From: Raja brachyura
Lineage: Eukaryota
Reading direction: 5' to 3'
DNA: 64,000 nucleotides
Assembly: GCA_963514005.1 (NCBI GenBank)
Contig: OY740797.1
Location: 24,676,001-24,740,000, forward strand
The position numbers were made by a program, and so were the translations under genes. Shown here piece by piece: positions 6,505 through 64,000 of this stretch. The notes beneath the pieces were generated by a model, which was given only the letters and a program-made list of their open reading frames with translations, did no database searches and had not been told where the DNA came from. Within the stretch, counting starts at the first letter, position 1. Each line of letters begins with the position of its first letter.

Positions 6505-6687
6505 TTTCTTGAAAAAGTCGCGCGCCTGATGACGTCACGGACCTTTTAAACGCTACCGGAGCCGTTCCCAGTCGTTCTCCCGCGGTGAGTACGGTTGACT
6601 GACCCCTAGACCCCCGTTTTTTATACAATTTTTAGTGGAGCTGTAATGGCGCGACTCCACTCACACCATGGCGCCAACCGGAAGTCC
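6505..6687 (-). promoter_or_regulatory. L1 5'UTR internal promoter candidate
   Basis: A CpG-containing segment at the 5' end of an otherwise AT-rich element. It has an ETS-like CCGGAAGT at 6678-6685, an adjacent YY1-like GCCAT core and a CRE palindrome TGACGTCA at 6530-6537. Function is inferred from the internal-promoter biology of L1. Confidence 0.5.
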
Positions 6688-29513: not shown

Positions 29514-29518
29514 CTCAC
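27785..29518 (-). CDS. CR1 ORF2 reverse-transcriptase fragment (577 aa, uninterrupted, N-terminally truncated)
   Basis: Motifs KSPGPD, NYRPVSLTS, QHGF, YLDFQKAFDKV, GVPQGSVLGP, KFADDTK and RDLGV. There are no stops, but the true start and the endonuclease are absent. Confidence 0.85.
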   Translation of the reverse strand: MRRKRLVKTNVGPLQSETGELIMGNKDMADQLNNYFGSVFTKEDINNLPEIAGDRRSKEYLSEIQVSREVVLGKLNGLKADKSPGPDRLHPRVLKEVAPEIVDALVIIFQNSLDSGVVPEDWRVANVTPLFKKGGREKTGNYRPVSLTSVVGKLLESVIKDGIAAHLERGKIIGQSQHGFTKGKSCLTNLVEFFEDVTSSVDGGEPVDVLYLDFQKAFDKVPHKRLVYKLKAYGIGGSVLMWIENWLANRKQRVGVNGSFSQWQAVTSGVPQGSVLGPQLFTIYINDLDEGIEGNISKFADDTKLGGSVSCEEDARRMQGDLDRLGEWANVWQMQYNVDKCEVIHFGGKNRKTDYYLHGGRLGKGEMQRDLGVMVHQSLKVGMQVQQAVKKANGMLAFIAKGFECRSREVLLQLYRVMVRPHLVYCVQFWSPNLRKDIIAIEGVQRRFTRLIPGMSGLSYEQRLHRLGLYSLEFRRLRGDLIETYKILKGLDRLDAGRLFPMLGRSRTRGHSLRIRGKSFRTEMRRNFFTQRVVGLWNSLPQRVVEASSLDIFKRELDVALVAKGIRGYGQKAGTGY

Positions 29519-32599: not shown

Positions 32600-35500
32600 T
32601 TTTACTTCGGAGTCACGTGAGTGACTACGTGAAGAAGCCCCGCCTGGCGCTGGATCGGCATTACGTCGACGCTATCGGCAGAGAAAGAGCTGCAGAGCGC
32701 AGCTCCAACACAGCGGTAAGGAAACAGCCCGCAGGTAAGTAAAATTATTTTACTTCCAGGGCGTTTTCTAAAAACTCCGTAGGCTGGTAGGTAAACCAGG
32801 AGGAGTTAAAATAAAAATAAAAATGTTTTAAATAATCGCGGGTAAAACGTGCGTCCCGGGGTGTAGAAAAGTCGGGACAGCAGATTATTGCGGAGCCGGT
32901 TCCGATACTGGTGGCCGATTGAAATACCCGTTAGTGAGCCTTTGGTTGCTCCACAAACAAAACTTGAAAACCCAGTGCCTAAAAAGTAAAAGAAAGAAGC
33001 TTGAAAGGCCTGAGGTTCTGAAAGATCCTGAAAGGAAAGGCTTTGGCTAAAGTATGGATCTAATGGAGAAAATACTCCAAACAATATCAACCAAGGGTCT
33101 AAGTACCCAGAATATTCCCAGGCAGCCCCTGAGGGGGTTCCATATACATGAATATGGTGCCAGTTTGAATTGGGAATTAAAACTCCAGTGCCTGGGATTG
33201 GGCTGGAGGAAGTCTCCTTGAACAAGTTTCAGGAGTACCAGGGCTGTATGAGACTGACCCTGAAAGTGGTGTTTGTGGTCAGAAGTACCCACCACAATAC
33301 AAATCCAGGTGTGTCTGATGCGGCACAAAGTTTACTATACCTGGAGGAGGCGGTGAGGCCATGGAAGGAAACCTGGCGGCCAATGTTAATTATATGGCCT
33401 CTCACCTGCCTCAAAAAAGCTGTTATGGTTGAGACAGCAAATTTGGATTTAAACACCTATTTATTGTGGTCAGAAGTACCCACCACAATACAAATCCAGG
33501 TGTGTCTGATGGGGCACAAAGTTACTATACCTGGAGGAGGCGGTGAGGCCATGGAATGAAACCTGGCGGCCAATGTTAATTATATGGTCTCTCACCTGCC
33601 TCAAAAAAGCTGTTATGATTAAGACAGCAGATCGGATTAAAACACCTATTATTGTACCTCAAAGAAGGTACCTATGGTGAATCCGGCTTTTTTGGGCGCC
33701 AATGTCAGCAATAATGCGGGCGCAGGAATTACGATTCAAAGAATCCTCAAGCTAATTTTGGCATCACTGTCTTTTGGAAGACAAGCTGGAAGGTTGTGGA
33801 ATGACCAAAGTTCAGAATAAAAAGCATATGTTGGGCTTATTCTGCAACTCATTTTGAGATAAAATATATCAAATGGAAGATTGCCATTCGGCCTCTTTTA
33901 CATCCAAGTTTTCAGAGTTGTGCAGGGCAAGCAATGTTGAAGCTCTTGGTTATTTGTTCAGAGGAAGTCTAAACAAATTAAAGAAATGGATGAAAAGGCA
34001 AAAACTGTTGGCCTTGTGAAACCCTTCAGTTTGGCCAGAAAGGCTGGTCATATGAGAAGGGGATTTGATTTTGGAGCTTGAACGAGCCGAGGAGAGTATG
34101 ATAAGGAAGAATTACCAGCCAGCACAGCCGAATGTACACCCATTTATTGGGAAAGGAGATCATTTTGTCACAGTTGGAGAGGTACAAAAAACGTTATCCT
34201 ATTAAAGAAGGATGATTGGATGAACCTCAGATTGGTGGTAGACTCCGAATGTTTATAATGAAAGCGAGGTATGGATCCATTGGGACACAATAAGCCTAAT
34301 CATTCTTTGATGTTCAGTCTTGAAAGTATTAAAATTGACAAAAGAGGTTAAGTATTTATGTGAGAAAGGAGTTATTGAGAAAACAGGAGAGGATCCACAA
34401 CAATTGTATCAAATTTCCCCAGACCGAAGAAAGATGGGGGTTGTAGAATCAATTTAGATCTCACACAATTGAATACATTTGTCCAGTATAAACATTTTAA
34501 AATGGACACATTCAACACTGCAATGCAGCTGGTATCAACAGGTTGTTATATGGCTACAATAGATTGAAGGATGCATATTTTCGGTCCCAATTCACCATAG
34601 TTTCGCAGGTAATTAAAGTTTATGGATGGGACAGCTGTGGCAATATAAAGCTTTGCCTAATGGATTAAGCCAGCACTTGCACTGCTAAGGGCACAAAAAA
34701 AAAATAAACACATCGTTATGGCTTATCTAGATGACATGTTAATTGTCAATGCTAATCAGGAGTCAGCTGGAAAATCAGTCTCAGCAACTACAAGTTTGTT
34801 TGAGAAGTTGGGTTCCTGATCCATCCAACAAATCTAAGTTACAGCCATCCCAAACCATTGAATATCTGGGGTTGTGATTAACTCAGTTACCATGTTGGTA
34901 ACTTTACCAATGGATAAGGTGTTGGATTTGACAAATGATGTGTCAGAACCTGATTAACAAACCTTATCCCTCCATCCGAGAGATTGCCAAGGTTATTGGT
35001 AAATTGGTAGCCGCATTCCAGCAGTAGAGTTGGTCGTCTACATTACCAAAATCTTCAAAGGGCAAAATTCAAGTGCTTATTCAGCGAGCAGGCCATTTTG
35101 ATAGGCCAATGCAATTGCCTAAGGAAGCTTATCAGAATTACATTGGTGGATTGAGTATGTTCCATAAGCTGCTAAGAACATTTAGTTCATCAACCAGCAG
35201 TGTTTTTGCAAACTAAAAAAGACGCAAGTTCTCCCGGATGGGAGGCTACGGATAATGAGACCAGCTGTGGAGGCAGATGGGCTGTCCAAGAGGATTTTTG
35301 CTCCAAACATATGGTATTAAATATTGGAGCTACTGGGAGCATTTATGGATTAAAAGCTTATTGCTCTTCATTAAAGATTTGCATGTCCAAGTACAAATAG
35401 ATAATACCACAGCTGTGGTATATATCAATCACATGGGTGGTGTCAGATCAATATCATGTGATCATCTGGTAAACCAGATGTGGCAATGGTGTATGGCAGA

Positions 35501-37560
35501 AAATAAAAATAAATAAAATATTGGATTTCAGCTATTTATCTCTTGGGGAGAGACAATGTTGTGGCAGACAAAAGATCACGAATATTTAAAGACAATACAG
35601 AATCGATGTTAAATCCACAAATTTCAAAAATATTGTCAGCCGGTATGGAGTACCGGACATTGATCTGTTTGCATCTAGATTGAATCACCAATTGCCCAAA
35701 TACGTGTCTTGGGAACACGATCCAGGGGCAGTAGCGGTGGATGCTTTCTCGCTACACTGGGGGAATATGTTCTTTTATGCTTTTCCCCATTCTGTCTCAT
35801 TGGGCTATGTCTCAAGAAAATAGCGCAAGACGCTGCCAAAGGCATTTTGGTGGTGCCAAATTGGCCCACGCAGTCATGGTTCCCATTGATGCTAAAATGA
35901 TTTTGAACCATGTATGACAATTCCCAGTTGCGACAAACTGTTGACACAACCAGTAACAAAAGAAATTCATCCACTGCATGATCATATGAATTTGTAAATC
36001 TGCAGGTTCTGACCAGACCGTTGCAAGAGTTTGAACTGTCGGACAGGACCATGGATGTTATAGATGCAGCTTGGAGGAATAGCACTAAAAAATGTCACAT
36101 ATAAGAAAATGGGAAGTTTTTGTACACTGTCAAAGATATCTTATCATACTGCAAACATTCAAATGTATTGGAGTTCCTTGCTGGGTTACACTTTGATGAG
36201 CATTTGAGTTATAGTGCCATTAATTGCGCTCGTAGTGCATTGTCATCCTATTTAGGACAAATTTCGGATCGGGATTCAGTTGGGTCTCACCCATTAGTAA
36301 CCCGATTCATGAAAGGAATTTTCAATAAAAATCCTCCCAAGCCCAGATATACAGAAATTTGGGACGTTAGCATTGTTCTCACTTTGCTTAAACGATGGAC
36401 TCCAATTAATTCAATGTTTTGCAGAAATTAACATTCAAGGTGGTAATGTTAATGGCATTGGTATCAGCTCAAAGAGTACAAACTTTGCAATTGTTACGTT
36501 TGAATTGCATGCATATGACTACAGATAACATTGTGTTTTATGTTTATGACTTGATCAAACAAAGCAGACCAGGAAGAACTGGAATGAAGGTAATGTTTAA
36601 AGCATATCCTATTGATGGAACATTGTGTGTAGTTAAGCATTTAACTCAATACATTGAGGTAACCAAAAATCTCAGAGGTTCTGAGAAAGCGTTATTGATA
36701 ACACACAAAAAGCCACATACAAAAGTTTCAGTTCAAACCATTTCTAGATGGTTAAAACAGGTTTTGGGTCTAGCAGGAATAGACACTGATGTGTTTAAAT
36801 CTCACCCCACTAGGGCGGCAGCTACGTCCATGGCAAAGGTAAAGGACGTACCAATCGATCAAATTTTAAAGGCCGCAGGGTGGTCTAGAGAAGAGATTTT
36901 TCAAAGTTCTACAATAACCTGTTGTCACGGTGCCAGGATTTGGACACGCAGTACTGGGTTCTCTCTAAATGCTTGCTTTGTTTTATATTATCGATTTATA
37001 TTATCGATTTATGTTACCATTGACATCATTTATCAATTTATTTTGTAATTTTCCCCTGCGATAGAGGGGTTATTATTAAAAAGTTGTTCTTTTTATGATT
37101 AAAAGATTTATTACATAAATTGTAACAATGTCTTAAAATACTATTTACTCACTACTGTTTTGACTAAACAGAGAGTCGTATGAAATGAATTTACGACATA
37201 AAAAACACAGAGCTTTAAAATCTTCACGTAGTCACTCACGTGACTCCGAAGTAAAATAGTGAGATTAAATGAGAACTTACCTGTTCGAAGTTTGATCTTT
37301 ATTTTATGAGGAGTTACGATGAGGGATTACGTGCCCTCCACTCCCAACCCTCATAATGTAAATGATCATCTGGTAGTTCTAGTCTATTTTGAGCCTTACT
37401 ATTTTACTTCGGCTATTGGTTCTGTGTTTTTCATGCCGCTGCTTTGAAGTATGCCGATCCAGCACCAGGCGGGGCTTCTTCACGTAATCCCTCATCGTAA
37501 CTCTTCATAAAATAAAGATCAAACTTCGAACAGGTAAGTTCTCGTTTAATCTCACTATTT
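32600..37560 (+). mobile_element. Full-length but decayed DIRS1-like tyrosine-recombinase retrotransposon
   Basis: The left ITR (32600-32660) is inverted relative to 37452-37486. The ICR (37221-37333) is complementary to both termini. Remnants include RT YLDD (34724-34735), RNase H (DASSPGW; VQIDNTTAVVYINHMGG), an MT-like domain (PDIDLFASRLN...DAFSLHW...YAFP) and YR (SAQRVQTL, KQSR, SHPTRAAATS, AGWS). Confidence 0.93.
36120..36920 (+). pseudogene. DIRS tyrosine recombinase remnant (frameshifted)
   Basis: ORFs 36120-36431 and 36419-37048 contain LSYSAINCARSALS, HPLVTRFMKG, PRYTEIWDV and the catalytic R...K...HxxR...W residues. The terminal Tyr is lost to a frameshift. Confidence 0.85.
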
Positions 37561-40411: not shown

Positions 40412-43400
40412 AGAATTTACCAGTTTGAAGTTTGATCTTTATTTTATGAGGAGTTACGTTGGTGATTACGTGAAGAGCCCCGCCAGTTCGCATGCGCGTC
40501 AATCTTCAAAGCAGCAGTATGAAATCACAGATAACAATAATCGAAGTTAATATAGTAAGATCAGCAACTTGAGAACTACCAGACGACCTTTGTGACAGAG
40601 AGTTGGGCGTGGAGGGCACGCAATCACTAATGTAACTCCTCATAAAATAAAGATCAAACTTCAAACTGGTAAGTTCTCGTTTAATCTTACTATTTTACTT
40701 CGGAGTCACATGAGTGATTCCGTGAAGGGTGCAAAGCTCTGTGATTTCATGCCATAGATTCAAATCCCGGCGTCTCACTGCATCGATTGACTCAGGATGA
40801 GTGAATAATCAATAATGCACTAACCATGACATTGATTCAAATGTATTAATGGTTTATGTTAATAAATAAATCAATAGCAACCCCTCCATCTCAGGGGAGG
40901 CTAAAGTGGACGCAAAACAGAATGGGCAAATAGCCCCGGTCAGTAACCGGCCCATGGTAAAAAAAATTAAAAAATAATTCAGTGGACCATCCTGCGGTCG
41001 CGAGGATATGGTCGATGGGAACATCCATTGCCCTGGCCGCTGACGTTGATGCCGCCCTAGTGGAATGAGATGTAAAATTGTCAGTGTTAATACCTACATA
41101 AACCAGAACCTGCTGCAGCCACCTTGAAATAGTCTGACCCGACCTTTCCTTGTGTGGTTGTTTGTCACTTAATAGGCAATGCTGATTCCACACTTTTTAG
41201 GATTCTGGTGGCCTTGATATAATATAGCAAGCCTGCCCTCACACATAGACGTGAGTCCGTGGGGTATGCCAAAATATGATCTTAAATCCTGCCACCCCTG
41301 GTCTGCTCTGCTTGTGTAGACCAGAAATGTAAATGTAATGGCCCCTGCAGCCAATTCCATCCTATCTAGCTGCAGCATTTGCAATGTTTGCCCTTGTTGT
41401 GCTGATACTAGTATCACAACTAAGGATGTAGCTGGAACCCCCTGGGGAAGTATTGTTAACACATTTTCAATATCCAAACTGCATATACTTGCAGTGGGAG
41501 AACTTGTGTCAAGATCTCTTTTACAACTCGATACCCGGGGTTGACCCGACAGAGTGGTTTCCATTTGCTGCAGCTGTAGTGGCTCTATAACTGAATTATT
41601 GTCAAAGACTATGTAAGAAAGAACTGGAAGACGTCAGTAGTCTGTACCATATTAAATGTAACATTAACATTCAACAAACTGCTTCCGATCCCCTCAATAG
41701 GAATGTACTTCTTTTTTGGTGCTATCCCTGCACTCTGTAGTGAGCACATCCATGGATTAATGTGACAACCTGAGCCGTAAGGCAGTCCATTGAGAATGTG
41801 TAAGTTAATAACTGTTTTATTATGCAGAGGCCGGTTTCCTGAACCAGCAAAGTTTTTTTGCTTTTTAGAATAACCGTATATGGTTGTATTATTATGCCTG
41901 GTGAAAGCAGGCAACATGGCTGCTTAGCCAGTCAGACAGTACAAAAACCTAAAGCGAGGTCTTGCTGACTGTTGCAAGACTCGATTAATGAGGCAAAATG
42001 GAGGAAGACATAAAATAAACATTCCTCCTTTTTGTAGCGAGAATGTATTCTCCCCACTGTTCTCCCACATATTTTTGCAATCAGTGAATAAACATGAAAC
42101 CAACATCTCGATATTCGATGTACCATTGAACCATACTTTCATAATACTTTGAGATCCAATACCTATTCTGTGTTGTCTTCGATCTGAACTTGATGATACA
42201 TCAGTGGCAGAGGAGATTAGGTAAATTATTACAGGATACTTTTACTTGATTGCCATGTGACTAACATATCCCACCACCGTAGTGTAGCAACTTGAAGTTG
42301 AGCATGTCGATTATGTATATTTGCTCAATAGCCCTTTACCCATCGGGTGCATCTAGTGTAAATTTTTAGTTGATACCAACAACTGAAGAATTGGCAACTC
42401 ATGCAATCCTCCTCCAACTCCAACTAGAGATGATATTCGCAACTTCCCACCTTAGAGCTCTTAGCATCAGTTTGTAATAACAGAAATTCGACTGACGAAA
42501 CTACTGGAGCAATGCTGAATACTGTTTATTCTTACCATTGTAACTTAGGTAGCTTCAGCTGACAATAGCATAAGGTTGTTAACAATGATCTACATGTCCT
42601 TTGAGAGGTCGCTACTTTGCATGATGTCAGTTCCCCGACTTGTAAGGCTGAACCACAGCTACTATATTGCCAATTAGTCTTGATGAATAGAAGTCAGTTT
42701 TTGTAACAGGTTGCTATTTCTCCAATCTTTTAAACACAGGGCGGATTCATAGGCTAATTAATAGTTAAAAGTAAATCCCAATGACCAACAAATAGTTTCC
42801 CATTTAGCAATGTTTTACTGTTATTAGTACAGTTATCATTGCCTTTGATAACCTCTGTAATGGGAACAGCACAGAATGGATCTTTGAGACCCTTATGAAT
42901 CCGTTGTTAGTCAGTAAAGAAGTTTTCCTATTCAGAAACTTTGTATGCAAGTTACCCGACACTCCCCATTTTTCATAATGAACAGGCCACTCCTGCCATT
43001 ATTCCATGGGTGCTTTGCACGATAACTCTGGCCTGATTTCTGAGCCTGTCTTAAAAGACAACCCTGGCCATGATCCCAAAACTTGCTTGGAATGTGAGTA
43101 CTGTGCCTCTAAGCAGATGCTTTTATCCTTTGCGTGTTGTACAAACAAGTGTAAATATTACAACTTGTGAGTGGTCCACTTACCCATGTTTCAGAAGTCC
43201 CAGACCTACCTTGTTGAGTAGGGCTGGTAGGGTGCATGGAACTTCTGCCCAGCTGTCATGCTGCCCCCAGCTTCAGTGAACCGCTTACTACCGATGAGCG
43301 CCTGGGATGCGTTCTGAAACGATGAACCTTTGCCCACCGTTGGCCTTAATTGAACATCTGCCAGATTTTTTCCCTTTTAAATGACCTTACCTGAATAAAA

Positions 43401-47008: not shown

Positions 47009-47060
47009 ATGATGACACGTGTCTTACTGCAATTGATTGTTCTTCACGTCAGCTGCGCCG
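47009..47060 (+). CDS. Exon 1: signal peptide MMTRVLLQLIVLHVSCA
   Basis: ATG, hydrophobic core and small residues at the cleavage site. The phase-1 donor G|gtatat is the classic IgSF leader exon boundary. Confidence 0.85.
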
Positions 47061-50000
47061 GTATATTTTACTCTTATAGTCAAACCAGACAGTCAAACCG
47101 AGACTTAGTTATCAATTTATAAGCTTGCTGACCCCTTATCTTTATTTATTTTTCTCGTTACGTACAATTTTCTATTAATTTGGTCATTACCTCAGTTTAA
47201 TCCTAAGCCTTATAGTTTGATTTTTCGTTTCCCGACAGCTGGTGACAATGGTCTGTTCAACGTAACACAAGTTCCAGAAGCTGTTTTGATGCGGGGTGAC
47301 TCGGCAGTGCTTTACTGCATTTATCCAATCTTCTCAGACAACAGGCCGTTCAAAGTGCATTGGTGGAGAGATGGAGATAATAAATTCCTGGATGAAAGTG
47401 CAGACAAAAGAATCCAGTTTTATTTCCTGAGACGGGGAAGCGCTGTCTTACGGCTGGGGGACGTGACAGCGAAGGACGCCGGGCTCTATTTTTGCAGCTT
47501 GACGCGTACCAACGTTTTTAACGGGACTGGCACAAAGCTGGTAGTTTACGGTGAGTTTTGGGGAGAGGAGTAAGCCAGATCGGTCAACTTCACCAAGTCA
47601 AAGCGATAAGCTCAATCACGTTGAAGAAATTGCGCTTTCTTCATCATCTGTGTCCTTTGAAATAATATGATTTATGTGATGGGTTGGATAGTGTTTTTGA
47701 CGCAATTACCAAATAATCCGAATAGACTGATTGAGAGAGTAAATGACGCCTTCCACATCTTCTGCTTGACAGAATTATAAAACCTTTCGCGTATATTTTA
47801 GATTTGCTTCAACGCAGAGGGAATGGTGTTACTGAAACCAACGACACACGGCACAGGTAGTAGAGATTGAAAATATGTAGGGTTCCGAATGTGGTACTGA
47901 TCAAGGAGATTATTTTTTTTATTGATTTATTTGCAGCTGTTATATTTTTTATCTAAAGTGTAAGGAATTGCAAGTATAAGGAATTGCAAGTGTCAGGAAC
48001 CTTTCGCGTATATTTTAGAATTGCTTCAACGCAGAGTGAATGTTATTACTGAAACCAACGACACATGGCACAGGTAGTTGAGATTGAAAATATGTACGGT
48101 TCCGAATGTGGTACTGATCAAGGAGATTACTTAATTGATTTCGTTGGACCTGTCATCTTTGTAATCAAAATTGTAAGGAATTACAGAATCATAGAATCAT
48201 ACAACACAACAACTGGCCCGTTCTGCCCACGTCGTCTCTGCCGACGGTACTAATTGTATATGTTGATGCTGTTTGCCTGCATTAGGCCCATATCCCTCTA
48301 TAACTCTTCTGCGTAATTACCGGTCCAACGCAATTTAAATGTTATTATTGTACTGCACCCTCTCCGGTGGCAGATGTTCCAGGTGTGCAAACCTTCCTCT
48401 TTTACATTTTCCACTTTTACCTAAAAACCGTGCCTCATAGTGCGTGATTCCACCATTCTGGGAAAGAAAACTCCGCCTGTGTGGCCTCGATATTAAAAAA
48501 ATAACATTTACAAGATTACTCTTCTGCCTCCTATATTCTACTGAGAATAAACCAAGTTTACCAAATGCCTCGTTTTTTACTCATCATCTGTGTCTCGTTA
48601 TAACCAGGCCCCTCTATTTCAGTCAACATTCTGGTGAACGTCTTGTGTACTTGCTCAATTGGTACCATGTTAATCCGTATTATAGGTTTGGTCACATTTC
48701 TGGTTGTCCCGGATGCTGCTTGAAATTATATAGGAGCCGTGAAGCGAATCAATCATTGAGGGATAAAGATCGGTATTGTTACATTTAGTCTGAAGAAGGG
48801 TCTCGACCCGAAACGTCAACTTATCATTTTATCCAGAGATGCTGTCTGACCCGCTTTTTATGAGTTTTATGTCTACCTTCGGCTTAAACCAGCACCTCTA
48901 GTTCCTTCCTATGCATTGTTACATTAACATATATTTTCCGTTAACTTTCCACTTATGGTTGTAGCGATAGCAGCAATGGAAATAGAATTAAGATCATATA
49001 GATATTGAAGACGGTTTGTTTTTAAATGGAGCAAATGTACTTGTAGTTTGAATCTCAAGCCTATATTTTGTGTGGCTTACGCAGACGCTGATCACTGTGT
49101 GAGCGATGGAACGGGGAAGTGCCATTTTCATGTATGAATGTCATTGATATCGTCTCAGAGGCCTTTGCATACCATCCACAATTGCTGGGATAATTGTTCT
49201 CGAAGTAATGCAATACTTTCTTCTGTGCTTAATGGAACTAGCGAACTGTTCCCCTGGCCCAGGTGTACAATATGTTTTCACACAAGAACACACATTCTTC
49301 TGACCTTGTAAATTAATGATTATTTTTAACCTCAATTTACTTCTGAATAAATCTTCTGCCCGAGTTAGTTATTTTAACAACGAGAAAGAATATATTTGTA
49401 AAATGTTGATAGTCGAGCTGTTATTATGGATTACATTTTGTACAATTAAATCACCAAATTATAATTGAAATCGCGAAGACAATTAAACAAAATCAAGTTA
49501 ATGTTTTGGCTCCTAATGTCTCTGCACTGAGCGGAACGCATCATTTACATGCGCTGCGAGTAGAAACGGAAACGATATATTTATGAAGTAAGGTAACTGT
49601 TGTACAATAGACCGCAATTGTAAAATCAAGACATACGACGATGAGGTTTAAAAGGAAGGAAATTAGTCGTTAGATTATACCACACCAAGGAAAATACTTA
49701 ACAGTTTGAAATCACTGTAAGTGCATTGGTTATAAAACTAGGCTGAAAACACATATGGTTCAATTAAGTTTTTTTCGAGGTTGCAATGACATTTGATTCG
49801 TCACGAAAATTACGGGACTGGTGAAATAAAAAAAATCGTTTTATTTTCCAGACACCCCAACTCCTCTGAGCCTGACTACCATGCTGCCGGAGAACACATC
49901 GGTTACTCTGATTCTTGTTTGCAAAACAGCAACTTTTTTTCCTCTTGATCTGAATATTACTTGGTACAAAAATGGGTCAGATATTATACAGAACTTTGAG

Positions 50001-53000
50001 CCAAACAAAACGCAGACAACAGCAGGACTGTACGAAGCTTGGAGCTCCCTGACCGAGACAGACCATGTGGAGAGCGGGACAGTTTATACCTGCCAGGTGT
50101 CTCATATTTCTCTTCCGCATCCAACGAATATCAGTTATACTTTCTACAGTCGAGGTAAGAATAATGATACATTTTCGATGCAATTTGGCCACATACCCAA
50201 GATTACCTCAGGAAATGGTGTGGTTAATACACTATATTGTCCGTTTAGCACATGTATAAACGTTGGGATGTTGGATTAAGCACTTGCTGAAAGGTGGGGC
50301 ATTCTTGAGTGTTCAGGTGGCATATTTCCTGTTCCCAACGTTTTGACTTTGCGGAAGATGTTGGGACAAACGTCCATGCTTGTGTGTGTCTCATGAACGT
50401 TATTACAATCTGTTCCATCATGCATTATGGTCCGGGTTAAACCATAAATGAAGCACCAGATCATCACGAACGAAACAAACTAATGCCTAAAATATACTGC
50501 GAAGATGTTCGCTGGCAATCGCTTGATTATGAAAGTATATTTTGGTGCCAAAACTCCACGCTATGGCAAGATCTGGAATAATTGGACTTACATGTTCTGA
50601 GAGACAGGTCCTGCATGCATTTGGGGAGGCGTGGAGAAAGGAATTGCACATGCTGGTTTACACCGAAGAGAGACACAAAATGCTGGAGTAACTCAGCTGG
50701 ACAGGCAGCATCTCTAGATAGAAGGAATGCGTGACGTTTCGGGTCGAGACCATTCTTCAGTCCGGAAAAGGATCTCGACCCGAAACGTCACACATTCCTT
50801 CGATCCAGAGATGCTGCCTATCCCGCTGAGTTGCTCCAGCATTTTGTAGCTATCTATGCATTTGGGGAGGCGTGGACTGTTCGGGGATAGTCAGATTTTC
50901 TTCGTGCGTGGGAATTCGCGTTTTACGACTCTGAATACGGGGTTTGAAACGGTGACCATGAACATTGACGAGGACAGTGCGGTGTATTGCCTACTTAGAC
51001 TTTAGAATGGCATTTGATAAGGGTCTGGTTGACTAGTCTGACAGGTAAGTTCGTATTGGATCCAGGGCGAGCTTGTCAATTGGATACGGAATTCCCTTGA
51101 AAATGGGAAATTGCCTTAAAGATAGTGATGGTAGAGGCTTGATTTTATGACTAAATGTCTCTGACGAGTGCTATGCCACAGGGATCGGTGGTGGATCCAC
51201 TGTCTGTTTTCTTTCATATTAACGATTTGGATGTGCGTGCAAGGGTAGTTTGTGGATAGCACAAACAATTGTGGTTTAGTGGACTGTGAAGAGATTTATC
51301 AAAAATTACAACGTGATCTTAGTCAAGCGGGCGAATGGTCTGACAAATGACAAATGTCGTTTAAGACAAAATAGGACAGATATGCAGGTAGACTGGGAAA
51401 ATCAGATTGGTACTGGACCCAAAGAAAGGGACTTTGTAGAGTATTCTTTGAACACCTTGTATTGGAGCCTACCAGGGAGAATGCAATTCTGGATTTAGTG
51501 TAATGAAATGAACTGGATTTGATAATGGACCTCGAGGTTAATGGGCCATTAGGAGGCAGTGACCATAACATGGTCAGGTTTAATCTACAATTGGAGAGGG
51601 AGAAGAGTAGATCGGAGGTGTCAGTGTTGCAGTTGAATAAAGGGGACTATGGTGCCATGAGGGGGTAGCTGGCCAAAGTTGATTGGAAAGATACGCCAGC
51701 AGGGATGACAGTGGAACAAAAATGGCAGATGTTTCTATGAATAATACAGATGGTTCAGGATCAGTTAATTCCTAGGAGGAAGAAAGATTCCAAGGGGAGA
51801 AATGGCGGACAAGGCGGACAAGGGACGTCAGGCACAGTATAAATATTAAAGTGAAGAAGTACAACGTAGCAAAGATGAGCGGGAAACAAGAGGATTGGGT
51901 AATATTTCAAGAGCAACAGAAGATATCCAAAAAGACAATCCGGGGAGAAAAGATGAGGCACGAAGGTAAGCTAGCCAAGAACATAAAGGAGGATAGTAAA
52001 AGCTTCTTTAGGTATGTGAAGAGGAATGTATTTGTTAAGACCAAAGTTGGACCCTTGAAGACCGAAAAAGGTGAATTTATTATGGGGAACAAGGAAATGG
52101 CAGATTAGTTGAACAGGAACTTAGGATCTGTCTTCACTAAGGAGGACACGTTGGCATGTTGGCCTTTATAACAAGAGGAATCGAATATAGGAGCAAAGAT
52201 GTCCTTCTGCAGTTGTACAGAGCCCTAGTGAGACCACACCTGGGGTATTGTGTGCACTTTTGGTCCCTTAATTTGAGGAAGGACATTCTTGCGATTGAGG
52301 GAGTGCAGCGTAGGTATACAAGGTTAATTCCCGGGATGGCGGGACTGTCATATGCTGAGAGAATGGAGTAACTGGGCTTGTACACTCTGGAGTTTAGAAG
52401 GATGAGAGGGGTTCTCATTGAAACATATAAGATTGTTAAGGGCTTGGACACGTTAGAGGCAGGAAACATGTTCCCGATGTTGGGGGAGTCATAGAACCAG
52501 GGGACACAGTTTAAGAATAAGGAGTAAGCCATTTAGAACGAAGACGAGGAAACACTTTTTCTCACAGAGAGTGGTGAGTCTGGAATTCTCTGCCTCGGAG
52601 GGCGGTGGAGGCAGGTTCTCTGGATGCTTTCAAGAGAGAGCTAGATAGGGCTTTTAAAAATAGATGAGTCAGGGGATTTGGGGAGAAGGCAGGAACGGGG
52701 TACTGATTGGGGATGATCAGCCATGATCACATTGAATGGCAGTGCTGGCTCGAAGGGCCAAATGGCCTACTCCTGCACCTATTGTCTATTGTCTGTTGTC
52801 TATAAAAAAGATGGCAGAGCGATGGCGGATGTTGTGTGTCAGAGAGGCCTGGGCGCACAAGTACATGGTTTCATGGAAGTCTCTGGGGTGGATAGGGCGA
52901 CGAAGAAGTCATACAGCACATTTGTTTGAATCAGTCAGTGTATTGAGTGCATGAAGAATGCCACCGGTATAATAAATGTAAATAATGCACATTTGTGTAT

Positions 53001-56000: not shown

Positions 56001-59000
56001 ATGCCTACCCCCCCCCCCCCCCCCCCCCCAGGTAGCTCATTGATATTCAACAAGAAAGGAACATTTTCGTCCATGTTCTGTATGGATTTTCGATGGTCGC
56101 CGTGCTACCCTGAATACAGCAGACGTCAATTCGCATTTAGAAGTAGACTACGAGGTCATGCACATCATTAGAATGAACGGTTCCAAAAAATCGGGTTTCC
56201 ATCGATATTCTGGATTAAAAAAACAAAGGATTACGTGTTTCTGTGAAGTACAGCACCTCATTTGTCACTAATGGTATTTCCACTGTTCTGTCACAGCGAG
56301 CGAAATCTACCTTCGTTTTTCCTACCACTCTCTTGAATTAATTTAAAAGCCTCTATTCGATTTGAGATCGGATTTCACAGCAAAATTCAACTTCCTTAAT
56401 ATTCCACGAATAATGCATCGTCTGTAATTCTGTCTCGAGCACACCAGGGTCGCCAAAAGGTAGAGATGTTTTCCAGCCACACTGTTGAATTACAAGGTGA
56501 AGAGTATATAACTTTTTATCCCTGCGCATTCGTGAACATTCCACAAAATGTCTTGTTGTACCGACACAGCTATAAACCACTACTTGTTATGATCTGCGAC
56601 ATATCCAAGCTGCATTCTTATATACCGTTTCGAATTGGTTGCAGGCAAATATTTGGTTCTTCTGCACCTTAACGATTCTTTGACTATATGTTATTTACAC
56701 ACAACTAGCATGCGACAACAATGATAAAACAGCAACTGCGTTCATGGGCAATGTTCCTGCATGTTTATTCCCCGTCGACGTTAACTCGATATAAACAAAG
56801 ACTGAATTATGCTTTTGAAGTAATAGCCTGTCCTATTATATAACACTCTAAATATATTACAACTGACCATTATTTTATTGTTTACAGTTTCATTACCCGA
56901 TAATCCATTTCATAACTGGATTTTTGGTTGCGCAGGAGCAGGATTGATACCTCTCATAATCATTATTTTCATTGTGAAACGAAAAGGTAAGACTCCGAAA
57001 CTTTTTGATCTCGGGATTGTTATGAAATTCAGCAATATTTTAGTTAGAAATACAGCTCGGAAACATGTGATTCAGCCCACCGAGTCGGCGCCGAGCAGCG
57101 ACCCTAGTATAATCACACTATCGTACACACACTAGGGAGAATTTACAATTATACCAAGCCATTTAATCTACACATCTGTACGTCTTTGGAGAGTGGGAGG
57201 ACACCGCAGATCCCGGAGAACATAATATTGGAGAGTTATATTGGATCGGACTGCATGCGGTTAGCTGGTCTGTGGTACATACGCCCCATCTCACTGAGTG
57301 TATCGTTTTTCGGAAGCTAACGTTTGAGTTAGTCACCGATTTGTTCATGAAGGATAGATGCTTGGTGTTTTGGGGCAGGTTGTAGGATAAGGGGTTGAGT
57401 CTGAGAAAATGGGTCGGTGATGCAGAAACTCATTCTGTGATTGAATGTGCTCCGACAACTCGAAGTGGACCAATATCCTGTAGGTTTTTAACAATTGGTA
57501 TCGTGAAATTAGTTTTGCAACATACATGTATACAAACTCAAAAGTTTAAAAAAATGTATATGCTGCTATATTTACTGTTTTCTACGATTCTTTGTATGGA
57601 CCAAGAGTTTTTTATTCTAAATTACCTCACTGTAGGGACGTGCAGAACATCGAAAGGACGTGCAGAGCATACAACGAAGGTAAGATATGTATAATACTGC
57701 ATATAGGTTCAAACAGCACTCGGACATCCTCCCAATTATTACCTTCGTTTGGATAATTACAAGATTCTACAAGTCAACTTGCGTGATGAAATTGGAGCAA
57801 AATGAAATTCCTCAGTAATGCCTTCAAATTCAAACACAGCTACTGTAGGCCCATTTGTGTACTTGATGTTTTTTAATGGAAGCATGGCGATAGAAATGTA
57901 AACTTAGGAGAAGGAATAAGCGATATGGTCCTTCGACCTTCCTTGGTCGTTCAATACGTTCATGGCTCATCCTGCCAATTTAGTGTCCCGCTCCTGCTTT
58001 CTCCCAATGTCGCTTGATCCCTGAGACTTGTTTTGCGCTGTAGTTCTCTATCAAGTTATAACAATGTTCACATCATTTTGAATATATTTCATAATTTTGA
58101 TTCGAGTGATTTGTGAAATAGATGTTCTTCTCTCCTGGAGAAGAAATCTGTCCCCATTACAGTTTGAAATAGCTTATCCCGTATTATTTTACAATGATTC
58201 CTGGTACTGGTTGTCCCATCAATGGGAACAACATAACTCCATTATATCTTTCATATACCGTGGATTTGTAAACAATTGTCTGGGCTGCCTTCTCATGCTT
58301 CCAATTTTTTGCGAAATTACATCAATGTAACCCAATGCATACGTTAGTCTTGAAACAGGCTATCAGGCTGTTGAAATCTCATTGTAACACCATCTTCACG
58401 GTCAAATAGACCAAATGTGCGCACACCTCTCCAGGAGAGCAGTCATCAAGGTCTATGCAAGTCGAGACAATCCTTTTCCGATAGCTTTTTTAATCGGAAT
58501 TTGGCATGCTGCTGGAATGTACGATGTTTAATTATGTCTATTGTAGTAACTTTATTGAAAATATCTTGATTCGTAGGAAAGAATTTTAACAAAATACTTT
58601 TTTTTAGACTAAGCATTGGGAACCCAATGAAGGAATTGTTTACAGTACTTTCCTTATCGCTGATGCAAAGCGATCTGCCGAAGATAAATATGCAGAACCG
58701 AGCACAATATATGCCCAGGTATGAGCAACATGCGCCATTTCATTGAGCAGCGATTGAATCACAGTTGAATGTAATTGAAACATTTATCTGAGTGCTTCGT
58801 TCGTAGCTTTGTCTAATTACGATTAACAAATTTCAGTCTCAAAAGGGGGGAAATCTCATCGGCAGAATTAATAGCCTTTGCTTTAATTAAAAAACAATTA
58901 TTTTTTCGTGAATAAGAAAGGTTATAATCCAAAATGCACCTGTAACTGAAATTCAGGTGGTGATAAGAGGGCACAATCTTGAATCTCTCCCGTGCTTCAG

Positions 59001-62000
59001 GTAAAAGTGCTGTCAAATTGTTTCGTGTAAACGTTTTGGGGAATTTAGACCCAACGACGAGGGAGGGCTGCCAACCAATTTTAAGTCAGGAACGAGTATG
59101 ACTCGGAAAGGAACCCACACGTGGCAGTGATCCCATTCAAACTTTGTTCTCTAGGCATGGAGATCAAAGATTGCTATGCGCTTATGTAATGGATGGGATG
59201 AATAGCTGCAGTTTACGTAGTAAATAGTGCACTGGTGAAGGAAATAACGGCTTACGGTTGGCAAGCAAATGCACTGATTTGACCTGAATGGTGTCAGGTG
59301 TCTGGAATTGGAACATTTGCTGGAACTGCACTCAGCTTGCCACATGAACGTCATTCTATCACATGCCCAAGTTATGCTTTGACGATGAGAAAATGTTTCG
59401 GAGTCAGTAGTTAGATAGCCTTTCGCAGAATACGCAGCCTACTCTTGTAGCTCTACTATTTATGTGGCTAATCCTCGTGCATTTGTGATCTACGATGAGT
59501 ACTAAAGAGGTGATGTTGGAGGATGCAGTGATCGCAATGCCACTGAATTTCAGGGTCATCGGTTGGACTCCATTTTTTGTGGTGTGACCCAACACCTTTA
59601 GTCTATCAGGTTGTGAAATTGCCAACAGGGATGGACTATTTGAATTTCTGAGAATTTGCAAGTGGAACGGAATATGGTGCAAACATTCAGTGAACACTCC
59701 AGTTTTGATTTAAGACGGACAGAAGGTAATTTATGATCAATTTAACATGGTTGCGCCTACGATACACCCCAGAATATTGCCCGTGGTGATGGTAACGCTC
59801 TCGGATAGTTCATCTGGAGCAATAACAACCAGTGCACCACGTGACTCCAATTATAAAGAACCCAATGATACTGTAATTGGAATATACCCATGATAGAGAT
59901 AGTGGAGGGAACATTCACCTGATTGATCTTTGCGGAGACTGGTTTTGCTACACGGGGAGATGTTATGAACATATATTGGAGTAGAGAGAATAAAGGTTGT
60001 TCACAAAAACCTGCAATATTTTACAGGCCGATAAATAGATGTTGATATTTATCCCGATTTCGTTGCTTAGAATCAGGCTTTGTAATCTCATAATGAGGAT
60101 ATAGCATTATTGCAGAGATAGCATTATTAACCAAGACTGATCGCTATAACATGATGTGGCAATTGACAATTCAGACACAATGAACAATCTGACAAGATAT
60201 GATGTCATTATTATATTAGGGAAGCAATGCATTTGAGGTTACTGCATGGTAAATTTCTTTTATATACAGTATAGTGTGTTTGATATCTGTAATTCGCTGT
60301 CGGGGGATGTGCTTGAATCAGATACAATAAGCGAGTTTGGTATTCCGACTGCGTATGCCTAGGTCATAGGTCACTAGCTATAAATCAGTCTTGGCAACCG
60401 TGTTGCTGCAATATGTGCCGGCTTGCATCTCATCCGTAGTCGGGTCGGGGTCGGCTCTCTGTCTGCTGTTGAGTTGTTGTTGGGGCATCCCCGTCCCCTC
60501 CCCGGTGTCCTGTCCCTGTCCGGAGGTGTCCAGGTGGCCCTGGGCTGGTGGGGCGGCCCCGGACTTGCCCCAGACAGAGCCGGATTGGTCCCAGCAGCCC
60601 TCCACCTCCACCCCCTCCCCTCAGTCCAACACCGAGATCCTGCTGAACATGGGCAGCTGTCGGCCCTGCTTGAATCCAGGTGACTCAGAGCTGCTGCTGC
60701 TGGAGTCGGCCTGGTTAGTGTCCCGTCGGTCCAGACATCTCGAGTGGTGGGGGGGGGGGGGGGGGGGAGAGAAAGTCCTAGGACTGCCCAGTCTCAACCC
60801 CTCCCCAGGCCCACCTGGTCTCCACCCCCCACCACCTGGTCTCCAACCCCCCCCCCCCCCCCACCCCGTCTCCCACTGAAAAATGACAGAAAATTGGACC
60901 AAACGTATACTCACTGTATCTATAGCGCAGAGATCTGTTTACTGTTATAGCTTACGACCTTTGACAAATCCCATCATTCCCTGCGTTTTTCGGAATACCG
61001 AACTCACTTATTTGCAATGTTTTAATGGCTTTTATACAGATACATCCACGGGCAAGCCATATGTTCCGAAACTGGCCATAAGTATAGATGGGCAAAAGGT
61101 CGGTATTATCACCGACTCTCTGACTGCAAAGCAACATGAGATAAAGATTAGTGGTAATATTTTAACACTACATTAGAGACACTAAAAGGCACTCCTGAGG
61201 CTATTGTTTATATTTTTACGTTTGGGGCGTTAGCCTGAGTGCCGACGCTGATATTGCTTTGCTCACACTGACTGGGGGGTTAGATGATTTCATGGAGATT
61301 TAATTGATAGCATACTTCTCCACACGTGCGCATTGCCTCGTGTAGGTCGATCATTTCACAAATTACGGCTGTTTGAAGTTTCGGGGGGAAAAAAGCCTGG
61401 TTCAGGGCCTAGAGGGTCAAACAGTCTTTACTTCAGTCTTTACTTGTGCTGTCACACCTAAAATGAATCTAAATATCACCGTTAATATTTGACTTCATTC
61501 AGAAATAACATCAGGTATCGAGTTGGGTTCCGTTTACTGCAGAATTCTCAAGACCCCTCAGTGAGAGTGGTCGGATGTTTTGCAAAGCCCGGGCATCCCA
61601 GCTGAAGGGGGCTTGTGGGAGGTGATGTGCAGCACGGTGACTGAAAAGATTGAGAAAGTTGCTGTGGTTACCATGCAGTCTTTCTGGGTTTGGTAGTCTT
61701 ATGAATGTTAGAATCGTGGGTTTCATTTTGTAGGCAATGTAAACTGTGGACCGTTTGCGAGGTAGTTAAATCTGAAAATAACCTTTCATACGCCAACCTC
61801 GCTAATAGTTGTAGTGTAGCTCTTTAAGCGGAAGTGTTTGAGGACTGGTCTCGTGATTTTCTCTTGCGGCATGTAATAGGGAGCCCCGCGTATTTGTTTA
61901 ATACAGAGTTCCCTTATATGAAGGGGATGGTCCCAATTACTACATCTGTAATGTCCCTTCTCTTCCTGGCTAGGGGGTGTGAGCCTGTAATTTTGTCCAG

Positions 62001-63031
62001 ATGCATCCACTAATAATTAAAATCTATCATAGCAGTTAGATCTATCTGGCAGTTTAATTTCGTTCATTGAGTTTCATTGTGTTTCACATGAAATGAAAGT
62101 CAGCAGGAAAATCTGTTATGTTGGCTAAGTCGACAGTGGTGCAATACAAAGGAAAGTCAAATTTAGAATGGAAATTAGTGTTTCAATGGGCCACTCCGTG
62201 ACAGTAAGAACAAAATATTGTGACCAGGTTACCATGCGCCACAGTTTGATGCATTAAACGGTGAATCAACAAGTAAGGATATTCGGTATTGGAAAATGTT
62301 TGAACTGATAAATTAGAGAAACATCAGAAAATGGTAAATAGAAAATGTTTTTCACTCGCTTGCATTTTTCGATGACACAGCAGAGAAGCTTAAAGAACGG
62401 AAAACATCCCAAGTGAGCATTTAATAAAATGCAGACAGAAGGCTTGCAAACGAGTCAGTGGCCAAATGAATAAAATATAACACATAACGGGGACCAGTAG
62501 AAGAAGCTGCCCCGTTCAATTGAACCGTAGGTAGTTGAATAATAGACACAAGAGACAACATTTACTTTCAATCCGATCAACTTTGGGAGATTATGCAGAT
62601 GAGGCCTTCAGCAACTATTTCCACGCAGGAACATTAAAAACAAATTGAATTGCCCTCGTTAGCAGTATATTTGATTTGGCTAGTCGCTAATGCATAGTCT
62701 TGTGTTTAGCCAATGATCACTGCACAACGCAGAGCAGCGAAAAATGAATCAATTTGTTCTTTCCCAGAAGGAAATATATTAATATAATAACATTTTTCAT
62801 ATTAGTAAAGGCATTTGGTATTTTGCTAACATTTACAATGTCCGTTACTGGCGGCAGTGGTGTATTTTTGGAAATATGTTGATGGTGTAATAATTATAAT
62901 AACTTGCTGATAACTTTCAGACAATGCAATCCGAATGTGATCCAAAGTTAACATATACTACTCTAAACATCGCTCGTCTAGAGACATCTATTAAATCCAG
63001 ATACGTTGAAGAAGACATGATATATGCCCAG
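47009..63031 (+). CDS. IgSF receptor gene: leader, VJ-type V domain, C1 domain, TM and ITIM-type tail (NCR3/SIRP-like architecture); 7 coding exons, 344 codons in the window, 3' end probably outside it
   Basis: Exons 47009-47060, 47239-47550, 49852-50154, 56888-56986, 57636-57679, 58608-58718 and 62921-63031 all have GT-AG boundaries. They join in one frame (intron phases 1,1,1,1,0,0) with no stop. Confidence 0.88.
47239..47550 (+). CDS. Exon 2: VJ-type Ig V-set domain
   Basis: Acceptor tttcccgacag and donor G|gtgagt. The protein has VTQ, B-strand LYC, C-strand VHWWR, F-strand DAGLYFC and a J-like G-strand FNGTGTKLVV. Confidence 0.95.
47781..48183. repeat. Tandem duplication (period 217 bp) in intron 2
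   Basis: The block aacctttcgcgtatattttaga...gtactgatcaaggagatta starts at both 47781 and 47998. Confidence 0.9.
48786..48914 (+). mobile_element. Short Penelope-terminus-like retroposon with hammerhead-like core
   Basis: ctgaagaagggtctcgacccgaaacgtc at 48790-48817, with an 11-bp TSD attgttacatt at 48775-48785 and 48915-48925. Confidence 0.75.
49852..50154 (+). CDS. Exon 3: Ig C1-set domain
   Basis: Acceptor ttattttccag and donor G|gtaaga. The C1 signatures are LVCKTATFFPLDLNITWYKNG and YTCQVSHISL. Confidence 0.95.
50636..50855. mobile_element. Palindromic Penelope-terminus-like retroposon
   Basis: Inverted arms of ~90 bp, with a 21-bp TSD atgcatttggggaggcgtgga at 50615-50635 and 50856-50876. 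Confidence 0.8.
51378..52800 (+). mobile_element. Internally deleted CR1 LINE in intron 3
   Basis: Same family as 26843-31411 (EGKLAKNIKEDSKSFFRYVKR). Near 52148 it jumps from the FTKEDT region straight to MLAFITRG, so the RT core is missing. The tail is ctattgtctattgtct. Confidence 0.88.
54037..54370 (+). mobile_element. V-SINE-like SINE
   Basis: Head ggcagcactgtggcgctgctggtggagg...gggttcaatcc and tail aaactaaac. Confidence 0.65.
55208..55418. mobile_element. Palindromic Penelope-terminus-like retroposon
   Basis: Near-perfect inverted arms agatagacac...gacgtttcgg and ccgaaacgtc...gtgtctatct. Confidence 0.8.
56888..56986 (+). CDS. Exon 4: stalk and transmembrane segment
   Basis: Acceptor ttgtttacag and donor G|gtaaga. 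It encodes (V)SLPDNPFHNWIFGCAGAGLIPLIIIIFIVKRK, a hydrophobic helix followed by a basic stop-transfer. Confidence 0.88.
57043..57225 (-). mobile_element. V-SINE-like SINE 3' fragment in intron 4
   Basis: Matches the 3' half of the copies at 6752 and 22855. Confidence 0.65.
57636..57679 (+). CDS. Exon 5: juxtamembrane cytoplasmic exon (G)TCRTSKGRAEHTTK
   Basis: Acceptor cctcactgtag and donor AAG|gtaaga. The 44-nt length converts phase 1 to phase 0, as exon 6 requires. Confidence 0.72.
58608..58718 (+). CDS. Exon 6: cytoplasmic tyrosine-motif exon TKHWEPNEGIVYSTFLIADAKRSAEDKYAEPSTIYAQ
   Basis: Acceptor ctttttttttag and donor CAG|gtatga. It is 111 nt, phase 0-0, and carries an ITIM-like IVYSTF and a terminal TIYAQ. 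Confidence 0.82.
62921..63031 (+). CDS. Exon 7: cytoplasmic ITIM exon TMQSECDPKLTYTTLNIARLETSIKSRYVEEDMIYAQ
   Basis: Acceptor taactttcag and donor CAG|gtaagt. It is 111 nt, phase 0-0, carries the canonical ITIM LTYTTL and is paralogous to exon 6. Confidence 0.82.
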
Positions 63032-63120
63032 GTAAGTGTAATAAGAGCCAATTAATGGAACAACTATGAATCAAAGATGAATGCATGTTAACCAATTATC
63101 TTTGTAAGATGTTTGTCGTT

Positions 63121-64000
63121 ACATAGATACATAGATACATAGACAATAGGTGCAGGAGTAGGCCATTTGGTCCTTCGAGCCAGCACCACCATTCAATGTG
63201 ATCATGGCTGATCATCTACAATCAGTACCCCGTTCCTGCCTTCTCCCCATATCCCTTGATTCCGCTAGTCCAAGAGGTCTATCTAACTCTTTTTTGAATG
63301 CATCCAGTGAATCGGCCTCCATTACCTTCTGAGTCAGAAAATTCCACATATTCACAGCCCTTTGGGTGAAAAAGTTTTCTTCATCTCAGTTCTAAATGGT
63401 CTACCCCTTATTCCTAAACTGTGGCCTCTGGTTCTGGACTCTCCCAAAATCGGGAACATGTTTCCAGCATCTAGCATGTCAAATACCTTAATAATTTTGC
63501 ATGTTTCTATAAGATCCCCTCTCATCCTTCTAAATTCAAATGAGTACAAGCCCAGTCGCTCCAGTCCCTCCATCCCGGGAATTAACCTCGTGAACCGAAG
63601 CTGCACTCCCTCAATAGCAAGAATGTCCTTCATCAAATTAGGTGACCAAAACTGCACACAATACTCCAGGTGTGGTCTCACCAGGGCCCTATACAACTGC
63701 CTATTTGCTCCTATACTCAACTCCTCTCGTTATGAAGGCCAACATGCCATTAACTTTCTTCGCTGCTTGCTGTACTTGCATGCTTCAGTGACTGATGTGC
63801 AAGGACACCCAGGTCTCGGTGTACTGCCCCTTTTCCTAACCTGACAGGTTTCAGATAATAATCTGCCATCCTGTTCTTGCCACCAGTGGATAACCTCATA
63901 TTTATCCACATTATGCTGCATTGCCATGCATCTGCCCACTCACCCAACCTGTCCAAGTCACTCTGCAAACTCTTCACAGTTCACACTGCAACCGAGATGT
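63121..64000 (-). mobile_element. CR1 LINE 3' part (runs off the window)
   Basis: A (catagata)n tail and RT sequence QLYRALVRPHLEYCVQFWSPNLMKDILAIEGVQ. Confidence 0.9.

Follow-up and report, generated by a model that had tools for sequence, protein, structure and literature searches.

The genome of the skate Raja brachyura contains, within a 64,000-nucleotide (nt) stretch of contig OY740797.1 (assembly GCA_963514005.1, positions 24,676,001 to 24,740,000, forward strand; hereafter the window), a predicted gene for a cell-surface receptor whose cytoplasmic tail includes two exons of identical length with tyrosines at the same positions. This arrangement raises the question of whether the two exons, numbered 6 and 7, are copies of one another, which of them is the older, and whether both contribute to signalling. 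The reading that we prefer, with a probability of about 0.62, is that both derive from a single ancestral exon in the tail of a cartilaginous-fish V(J)-C1 receptor, exon 7 being the ancestral copy and exon 6 an additional one that is likely to be spliced ahead of it, and that the receptor is likely to be inhibitory, acting through SHP-1/SHP-2. The exons and the duplicated block in which they lie are as follows:

58608..58718 (+): exon 6, 111 nt, 37 amino acids (aa); putative extra, faster-diverged module with the motifs IVYSTF, KYAE and TIYAQ; its splicing is predicted.
62921..63031 (+): exon 7, 111 nt, 37 aa; putative ancestral module with LTYTTL (one immunoreceptor tyrosine-based inhibition motif, or ITIM, of canonical form), RYVE and MIYAQ.
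58497..58790 (+): copy 1 of the duplicated block, consisting of ~110 nt of intron, exon 6 and ~70 nt of intron.
62811..63102 (+): copy 2 of the duplicated block, around exon 7.

Both exons measure exactly 111 nt and are free of stop codons in frame 0; both are of phase 0-0, and exon 5 likewise ends in phase 0. Their splice borders read ttttag/...CAG/gtatga (exon 6) and tttcag/...CAG/gtaagt (exon 7). When compared without gaps, 60 of 111 nt and 13 of 37 aa are identical, and the exons have in common Tyr 12, 28 and 35, the final four residues (IYAQ) and the entire 3′-terminal 12 nt, followed in each case by gta. The equal length and phase, the three tyrosine positions and the common 3′ end had all been named in the preliminary description of this locus, and each was confirmed.

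The same description held that the downstream introns are homologous as well. The flanks from +7 to +106 gave a local alignment score of 35, compared to 15.7±2.7 for dinucleotide shuffles (0/2000 reached 35), and the identical flank test against seven other module exons of the cluster produced scores of only 11–17; the similarity is thus not at chance level. For the upstream flanks, strict local scoring gave a borderline result, the observed score being reached by 82 and by 107 of 2000 shuffles; their global alignment, with end points picked post hoc, contained 84 identities in 122 positions, a result reached by none of 1000 mononucleotide shuffles. The suggested dot-plot revealed a single block of ~295 nt, at about 58497–58790 against 62811–63102, spanning both exons and their intron flanks (190 identities, 92 mismatches and 22 gaps), with a score of 113.5, compared to 25.6±3.4 for shuffled sequences (0/500 reached this value). 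No homology was found beyond the block on either side in tests of introns 5, 6 and 7, and a long interspersed nuclear element (LINE)-type repeat starts just past the end of the flank homology in copy 2. Exons 6 and 7, which are of equal length, have the same phase at both ends, share homologous intron flanks and lie in one gene, are confirmed as a true genomic tandem duplication of a symmetric exon rather than a case of convergence, in agreement with the preliminary description. Pfam contains no family matching either exon.

The exon boundaries of the gene were predicted from sequence and homology. Positions beyond the window are given as window coordinates continued along the contig (G000:C17) and are termed big positions; the contig position equals the big position plus 24,676,000. 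The remaining exons are:

47009..47060 (+): exon 1, leader peptide, with an ATG, a hydrophobic stretch and a GT donor in phase 1.
47239..47550 (+): exon 2, V-set domain joined to a J-like G strand (GTGTKLVV) in a single exon; Pfam V-set, 35.3 bits (cut-off 26).
49852..50154 (+): exon 3, single C1-set domain; Pfam C1-set, 47.9 bits (cut-off 21).
56888..56986 (+): exon 4, transmembrane (TM) segment without a charged residue, from its translation; 84% to Amblyraja P0021 over 38 aa.
57636..57679 (+): exon 5, juxtamembrane, 44 nt, phase 1-0; matches Amblyraja P0021.
big 67338 (G000:C17:24743338), 3.3 kb past the window: exon 8, tyrosine-free terminal exon, homologous to the manta terminal exon.

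The leader, V, C1 and TM exons join with exons 5, 6 and 7 into one open frame, and no second C1 exon was found between exon 3 and the TM exon. With its V-set exon, one C1-set exon and TM segment, the gene has the layout of a non-rearranging V(J)-C1-TM receptor. Its nearest proteins are P0001 of Leucoraja and P0021 of Amblyraja (93% in C1), both skates, followed by those of manta (P0004), sevengill (P0002) and horn shark (P0003). The V domain is 87% identical to that of P0001 and 54–59% identical to those of the manta and shark orthologues; in a V tree of 27 rows the gene clusters (100/99) with P0001 (Leucoraja), P0004 (Mobula), P0002 (Heptranchias) and P0003 (Heterodontus), and a quick version of the C1 tree agrees.

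Comparison with these orthologues bears on which of the two exons is the older. The manta P0004 module is identical to exon 7 at 22 of 37 residues and to exon 6 at 15. A tree of modules placed both exons in a clade (97/93) with module 1 of the orthologues, not module 2; exon 7 is sister to the manta module (97/80), and exon 6 lies on a long branch. The manta order is exon 5, module, and a terminal exon starting with TIHG, for which the counterpart here is exon 7 followed by exon 8. Its likeness to the manta module and the homologous terminal exon behind it assign exon 7 to this gene, and leave exon 6 as the copy that was added. By these comparisons exon 7 is to be regarded as the ancestral copy and exon 6 as an additional, faster-diverged one. 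One result weighs against this placement: the position of exon 6 inside the module-1 clade is weak (93/29), in a tree of only 37 columns whose bootstrap values had not settled.

A different origin of exon 7, from another gene or relic and introduced by segmental duplication, was considered in view of an orphan copy, here termed B′, located ~147 kb downstream (big 209706; G000:C17:24885706-24885817). B′ and its surroundings are 91% identical to exon 7 with its flanks; an unrelated V-C1 gene precedes it, and no copy of exon 8 accompanies it. It adjoins a tail duplicated from the minus-strand type of gene in the neighbourhood, and in this organism, as in run X1 (near-identical to the window), one nucleotide is inserted in it. 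The contigs compared with exon 7 covered B′ only, in run X1 too. No such insertion occurs in a second organism, termed organism B, where B′ is in frame and ends in STIYAQ, which suggests that MIYAQ of exon 7 may be derived from TIYAQ. The frameshift, the missing exon 8 and the duplicated neighbouring tail make B′ itself look like the passenger of a segmental duplication, and the best match of exon 7 is the module of the manta orthologue, with the homologous terminal exon behind it; a foreign origin of exon 7 is therefore largely refuted, and we consider it very improbable. The proviso that exon 7 might be a separate relic was accordingly answered in favour of its membership in this gene. The V-C1 gene upstream of B′ might have captured it as a tail exon; this was set aside, as the TM and module of that gene look degenerate and B′ is frameshifted here.

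The preliminary description also expected more copies beyond the window. None was found in this gene, in which the next exon is the tyrosine-free terminal one: profile and genome searches and a scan that covered the window and a further 200 kb detected no third module, the sole extra match in the scan being B′. The genome searches, in which one and two candidates respectively were scored, returned at least one match for exon 6 and at least two for exon 7. The suggested search for further 111-nt copies succeeded in paralogues, where 5 of 12 module exons have this length, but downstream of this gene it yielded only the orphan B′. A 36-nt match (31/36) to the exon 6 donor and flank at G000:C11:62232085, beyond which the homology does not extend and which has no related reading frame, was taken as chance.

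The order of events is less clear-cut. The duplication may be older than the split of skates and manta, the manta having lost, or skipping, its copy of exon 6; we regard this as possible, though not as the favoured timing. That exon 7 groups with manta while exon 6 stays outside (97/80) speaks for it, as do the uniting sites, 11 of which join exon 7 with manta, four exon 6 with manta and only two the pair of exons against manta. The same pattern results, however, if exon 6 has evolved faster, and Tyr28 and Ile17 are common to exons 6 and 7 and not present in the manta and shark orthologues; moreover, the intron flanks of the two copies remain ~70% alike.

Exon 8 encodes 26 residues without tyrosine, followed by a stop. 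In the batoid line, the second, terminal module of sharks has apparently decayed to this exon. Since nucleotide homology of exon 8 with exons 6 and 7 is not significant (26 and 321 of 500 shuffles reach the observed value), this derivation is suggested by position and a short four-residue N-terminal likeness.

The exon pair must be seen against the tails of the receptor family as a whole. Database relatives from chimaera, sharks and rays have tails with a tyrosine spacing of 23-14-23, i.e. two 37-aa units (P0002, P0006, P0053, P0104, P0151 and P0156 are examples), and the number of module copies per tail varies from 0 to 3. A set of 31 modules was cut from 24 database proteins by requiring a tyrosine pair 23 residues apart, and because of this selection both tyrosines of the pair are invariant in it. 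The residue three positions after the first phosphotyrosine (pY+3) is Leu in 26/31 modules and Phe in none, so that the YxxF of exon 6 does represent drift from a canonical motif, as had been suggested. The middle tyrosine, listed among the shared features of the pair, proved not to be a family feature (position 28 is Tyr in 1/31 modules).

A profile built from the database modules alone detects module exons in many skate paralogues. The internal module exons delimited in the skate clusters, for which AG and GT borders were required (terminal modules, partial hits and B′ being excluded), are all of phase 0-0 (12/12) and 87–117 nt in length, five of them exactly 111 nt. Exons 6 and 7 share the family pattern of a phase 0-0 tail exon with a tyrosine pair 23 apart and a YxQ/E/K end before GT. 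One skate paralogue (V at big 397.7k) has undergone a separate, younger 3.1-kb tandem duplication of exon 5 and a 108-nt module (G000:C17:25082452-25087685), with 82–84% identity. The horn shark RefSeq isoform X3 (P0179, XP_067905924.1) differs from X1 (P0178) by the in-frame absence of exactly the 37-aa module, both isoforms being automatic RefSeq annotations. These cases support the view that members of the chondrichthyan family gain modules and skip them in frame. A comparison of P0008 with P0018 was not counted as module skipping: their ectodomains differ, and a merged gene model is probable. The module is not confined to this gene but is the ancestral tail unit of the family, from chimaera to rays; its duplication here is fairly ordinary, and the pair represents a renewed duplication, at the level of a lineage, of a signalling exon that is standard in the family.

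Whether exon 6 is used was judged from its state of preservation. Its donor agrees with the consensus at 7/9 positions, equal to the donors of exons 3–5, and length, frame, both splice sites and all three tyrosines have been kept despite large divergence. Neutral simulation retained the AG/GT borders, length and frame in 22–12% of runs at 0.2–0.3 substitutions per site, and in 3.5–0.8% of runs with an assumed indel rate. The exon is also intact in organism B, in the contigs of which it shows no listed difference, while 1,246 intron bases contain 15–16 substitutions.

The rival view is that exon 6 is duplicated but an unused, decaying pseudo-exon, and that the mRNA runs from exon 5 to exons 7 and 8 as in manta. 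Several observations count in its favour and against use of the exon. Comparison with exon 7 gives nonsynonymous and synonymous divergences (dN and dS) of 0.65 and 0.96, a ratio of about 0.7 that indicates little amino-acid constraint; identity is flat over the three codon positions (20, 19 and 21 of 37), and coding identity (54%) does not exceed that of the flanks (~70%, gapped). Exon 6 forms a long branch and has lost family-conserved residues, among them the pY+3 Leu, now Phe. The neutral simulation carries an ascertainment bias, exon 6 having been chosen because it is intact, and the absence of differences in organism B falls short of significance (P about 0.24). A weak search found no database protein holding exon 6 or 7 among 36 candidates, and the RefSeq orthologues of skates end before the modules (P0001 after C1, P0021 after exon 5). 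Finally, exon 6 is missing from the near-identical paralogue that lies 85 kb downstream. Against this stand the preserved borders, frame and tyrosines and the intact copy in organism B, and we judge the pseudo-exon unlikely, while according it more weight than any other account of how exon 6 is processed apart from the preferred one, i.e. splicing ahead of exon 7.

The tyrosine motifs were evaluated with the definitions of ITIM, (S/I/V/L)xYxx(I/V/L), and of the ITSM (immunoreceptor tyrosine-based switch motif) in PMC12151841. LTYTTL of exon 7 is the sole canonical ITIM of the tail; IVYSTF of exon 6 lies outside the definition. For the last tyrosine of each exon, pY+2 and pY+3 are separated by an intron, and exons 7 and 8 both start with Thr, so that the predicted spliced forms are TIYAQ/T and MIYAQ/T, with no canonical ITIM or ITSM 23–27 residues downstream of the first motif. 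With its last motif interrupted in this way and completed by a Thr from the following exon, exon 6 when spliced is predicted to bring three more tyrosines and no canonical motif, leaving the tail with one canonical ITIM. Thr at this position is found in 9/31 database modules, all of them internal, and I/L/V in 20/31. The proposal that ITIM dosage is modular thus stands in part: gain and in-frame skipping are seen in the family (the skate paralogue and horn shark X3), but the dosage of canonical ITIMs is not raised by exon 6.

Read-through of the exon 6 donor yields TIYAQV and an immediate stop, which is formally an ITSM (TxYxxV). Exon 6 might accordingly serve as an alternative last exon, the gene producing two tails, one ending in the ITSM and the other bearing the ITIM of exons 7–8. 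The hexamer ATTAAA at 58886 is the only ATTAAA/AATAAA within 1.2 kb after the stop, Thr at pY-2 is retained in exon 6 (Met in exon 7), and the orthologue P0017 is annotated with an alternative ending after module 1. However, Val arises from read-through of any phase-0 GT donor, which makes the match partly automatic, and one such hexamer is expected by chance in an AT-rich intron. We consider an alternative last exon improbable, more so than a decaying exon 6.

Under the preferred reading, with exon 6 spliced ahead of exon 7, the mRNA would run through exons 1–8 and yield a tail with six tyrosines. The TM segment is free of charged residues, as in ITIM-bearing inhibitory receptors, and since this feature and the ITIM-bearing tail point the same way, an inhibitory receptor is predicted. 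In PD-1 and BTLA, SHP-1/SHP-2 bind bivalently via tyrosine pairs 25 residues apart, as reported in PMC8631942; each of exons 6 and 7 holds a pair 23 apart. The phosphorylated ITIM of exon 7 (LTYTTL) would be the main SH2 docking site, the tyrosine 23 residues after it (YAQ/T) a weak second site for a tandem SH2 pair, and exon 6 a weaker, non-canonical and skippable additional unit; recruitment of SHP-1/SHP-2 would then allow the receptor to inhibit immune cells. The two-module tail of the skate would have been rebuilt from module 1 after decay of the terminal module, and would not correspond to module 1 plus module 2 of sharks.

The gene is one of many. V-exon matches, 32 among 40 scored candidates, all lie on the same contig, mostly in two clusters (G000:C17 19.69–20.28 Mb and 24.72–25.11 Mb, with 16.79 Mb in addition), in repeated multi-gene units. 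The paralogue 85 kb downstream (G000:C17:24808271-24818000) is identical to the gene at 52/52 leader, 307/312 V, 259/303 C1 and 76/99 TM nucleotides, and the V exon appears to have been homogenised between the two by gene conversion. The TM segment of this paralogue contains Arg, its TM donor is changed from GT to AT, so that the tail is short and poor in tyrosine, and the search for a module exon in it was negative; it may be a candidate activating partner or a decaying copy. At the exon 5 donor (window 57680) the gene has GT, and this paralogue GC with 24 additional bases. The Amblyraja model P0021 similarly reads through the exon 5 donor into a stop, and a module-less isoform may exist in other skates. 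Homology of intron 5 with the paralogue ends ~14 nt before the exon 6 block (window 58483–58497), which may reflect a shared breakpoint.

Two repeats lie close to the exon pair:

60320..61020 (.): interspersed repeat in intron 6, in two pieces, with many copies genome-wide.
63130..64000 (-): LINE-type repeat with up to 94 BLAST hits per base in the retrieved contig DNA, of the same family as the element at 27788–29521 (Pfam RVT_1).

Four open reading frames (ORFs) in intron 6 gave no Pfam hit, apart from one below threshold. Elsewhere in the window, positions 985–6534 (minus strand) contain long LINE ORFs, with endonuclease and RVT_1 in 2257–4860 and an ORF1-like frame at 5419–6534. ORF pieces of a tyrosine recombinase (Pfam Phage_integrase) at 35259–37048 and 40891–41633 presumably belong to a DIRS-type retroelement, and a 190-nt tandem pair is located near them (33273–33655). 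The V-C1 intron includes a direct repeat spaced 217 nt (47781–48140; 143 nt, 92%).

Neither the duplication of exons for receptor tails nor an inhibitory tail with many tyrosines is new in kind. The present gene is a clean example of tail building, in which each symmetric exon would correspond to a docking unit for a tandem SH2 pair, and the module has been gained and skipped repeatedly in the oldest lineage of jawed vertebrates. The wider family, with its V-exon matches on one contig and a candidate inhibitory/activating pair, may outweigh the exon pair in importance and may bear on the origin of VJ-C1 receptors and of natural killer and myeloid checkpoints. A literature search turned up no paper describing the chondrichthyan V-C1 family, subscription journals being mostly outside its range and supplements not covered. 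A broader picture, which we regard as speculative and rather doubtful, is that of a large, apparently little-described non-rearranging VJ-C1 family in which signalling strength would be set by adding, skipping or losing a 37-aa exon: the skate gene would have lost the terminal module and re-duplicated module 1, splicing would pick the SH2-specificity residue (Thr when spliced, Val and a stop if exon 6 is last) as an ITSM switch, and the tail-less Arg-TM receptor would be the partner.

Within this chondrichthyan family (e.g. XP_067853506.1, XP_067906069.1, XP_072135200.1 and XP_007902824.2), whose automatic RefSeq labels include [quoted passage not shown], "tapasin-related-like" and "NCR3 ligand 1-like", the gene is typical in its V(J)-C1-TM layout, 37-aa two-tyrosine modules and orthology by V tree. 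It differs from shark members in that both modules derive from module 1 and a tyrosine-free exon ends the tail, whereas sharks usually end in a second module with YxxL/I/V.

Among described receptors, SIRPalpha (PTPNS1) is similar in its joined VJ-type V domain, C1-set domain, uncharged TM segment and multi-tyrosine tail, four tyrosines of which recruit SHP-1/2 (PMC11924727). However, SIRP proteins consist of a V and two C1-set domains (PMC12975943), while the skate gene has one C1 exon and a single canonical ITIM. The top PDB sequence hit of a shark orthologue is SIRPgamma (E 2.4e-13), with similarity no higher than to Ig mu or B7-H6. Joined-VJ receptors named in PMC11599192 are CD79, NITR, SIRP, CD8, NKp30 and PRARP. 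The ITIM-ITSM tails of PD-1 and BTLA resemble the skate tail in tyrosine spacing (25 and 23, respectively; PMC8631942), but the predicted spliced second motif here is YxxT, outside the ITIM and ITSM definitions of PMC12151841, and the ectodomain is different. Non-rearranging VJ-C1 genes of sharks (UrIg) are discussed in PMC12227049 and PMC10751288; UrIg, unlike this gene, has a multi-C architecture. With paired receptors (LILR, PILR, KIR and SIRP) the locus shares clustered genes and a neighbour of near-identical V with an Arg-containing TM segment and no tyrosine tail, and this neighbour fits the definition of a paired receptor given in PMC3533184.

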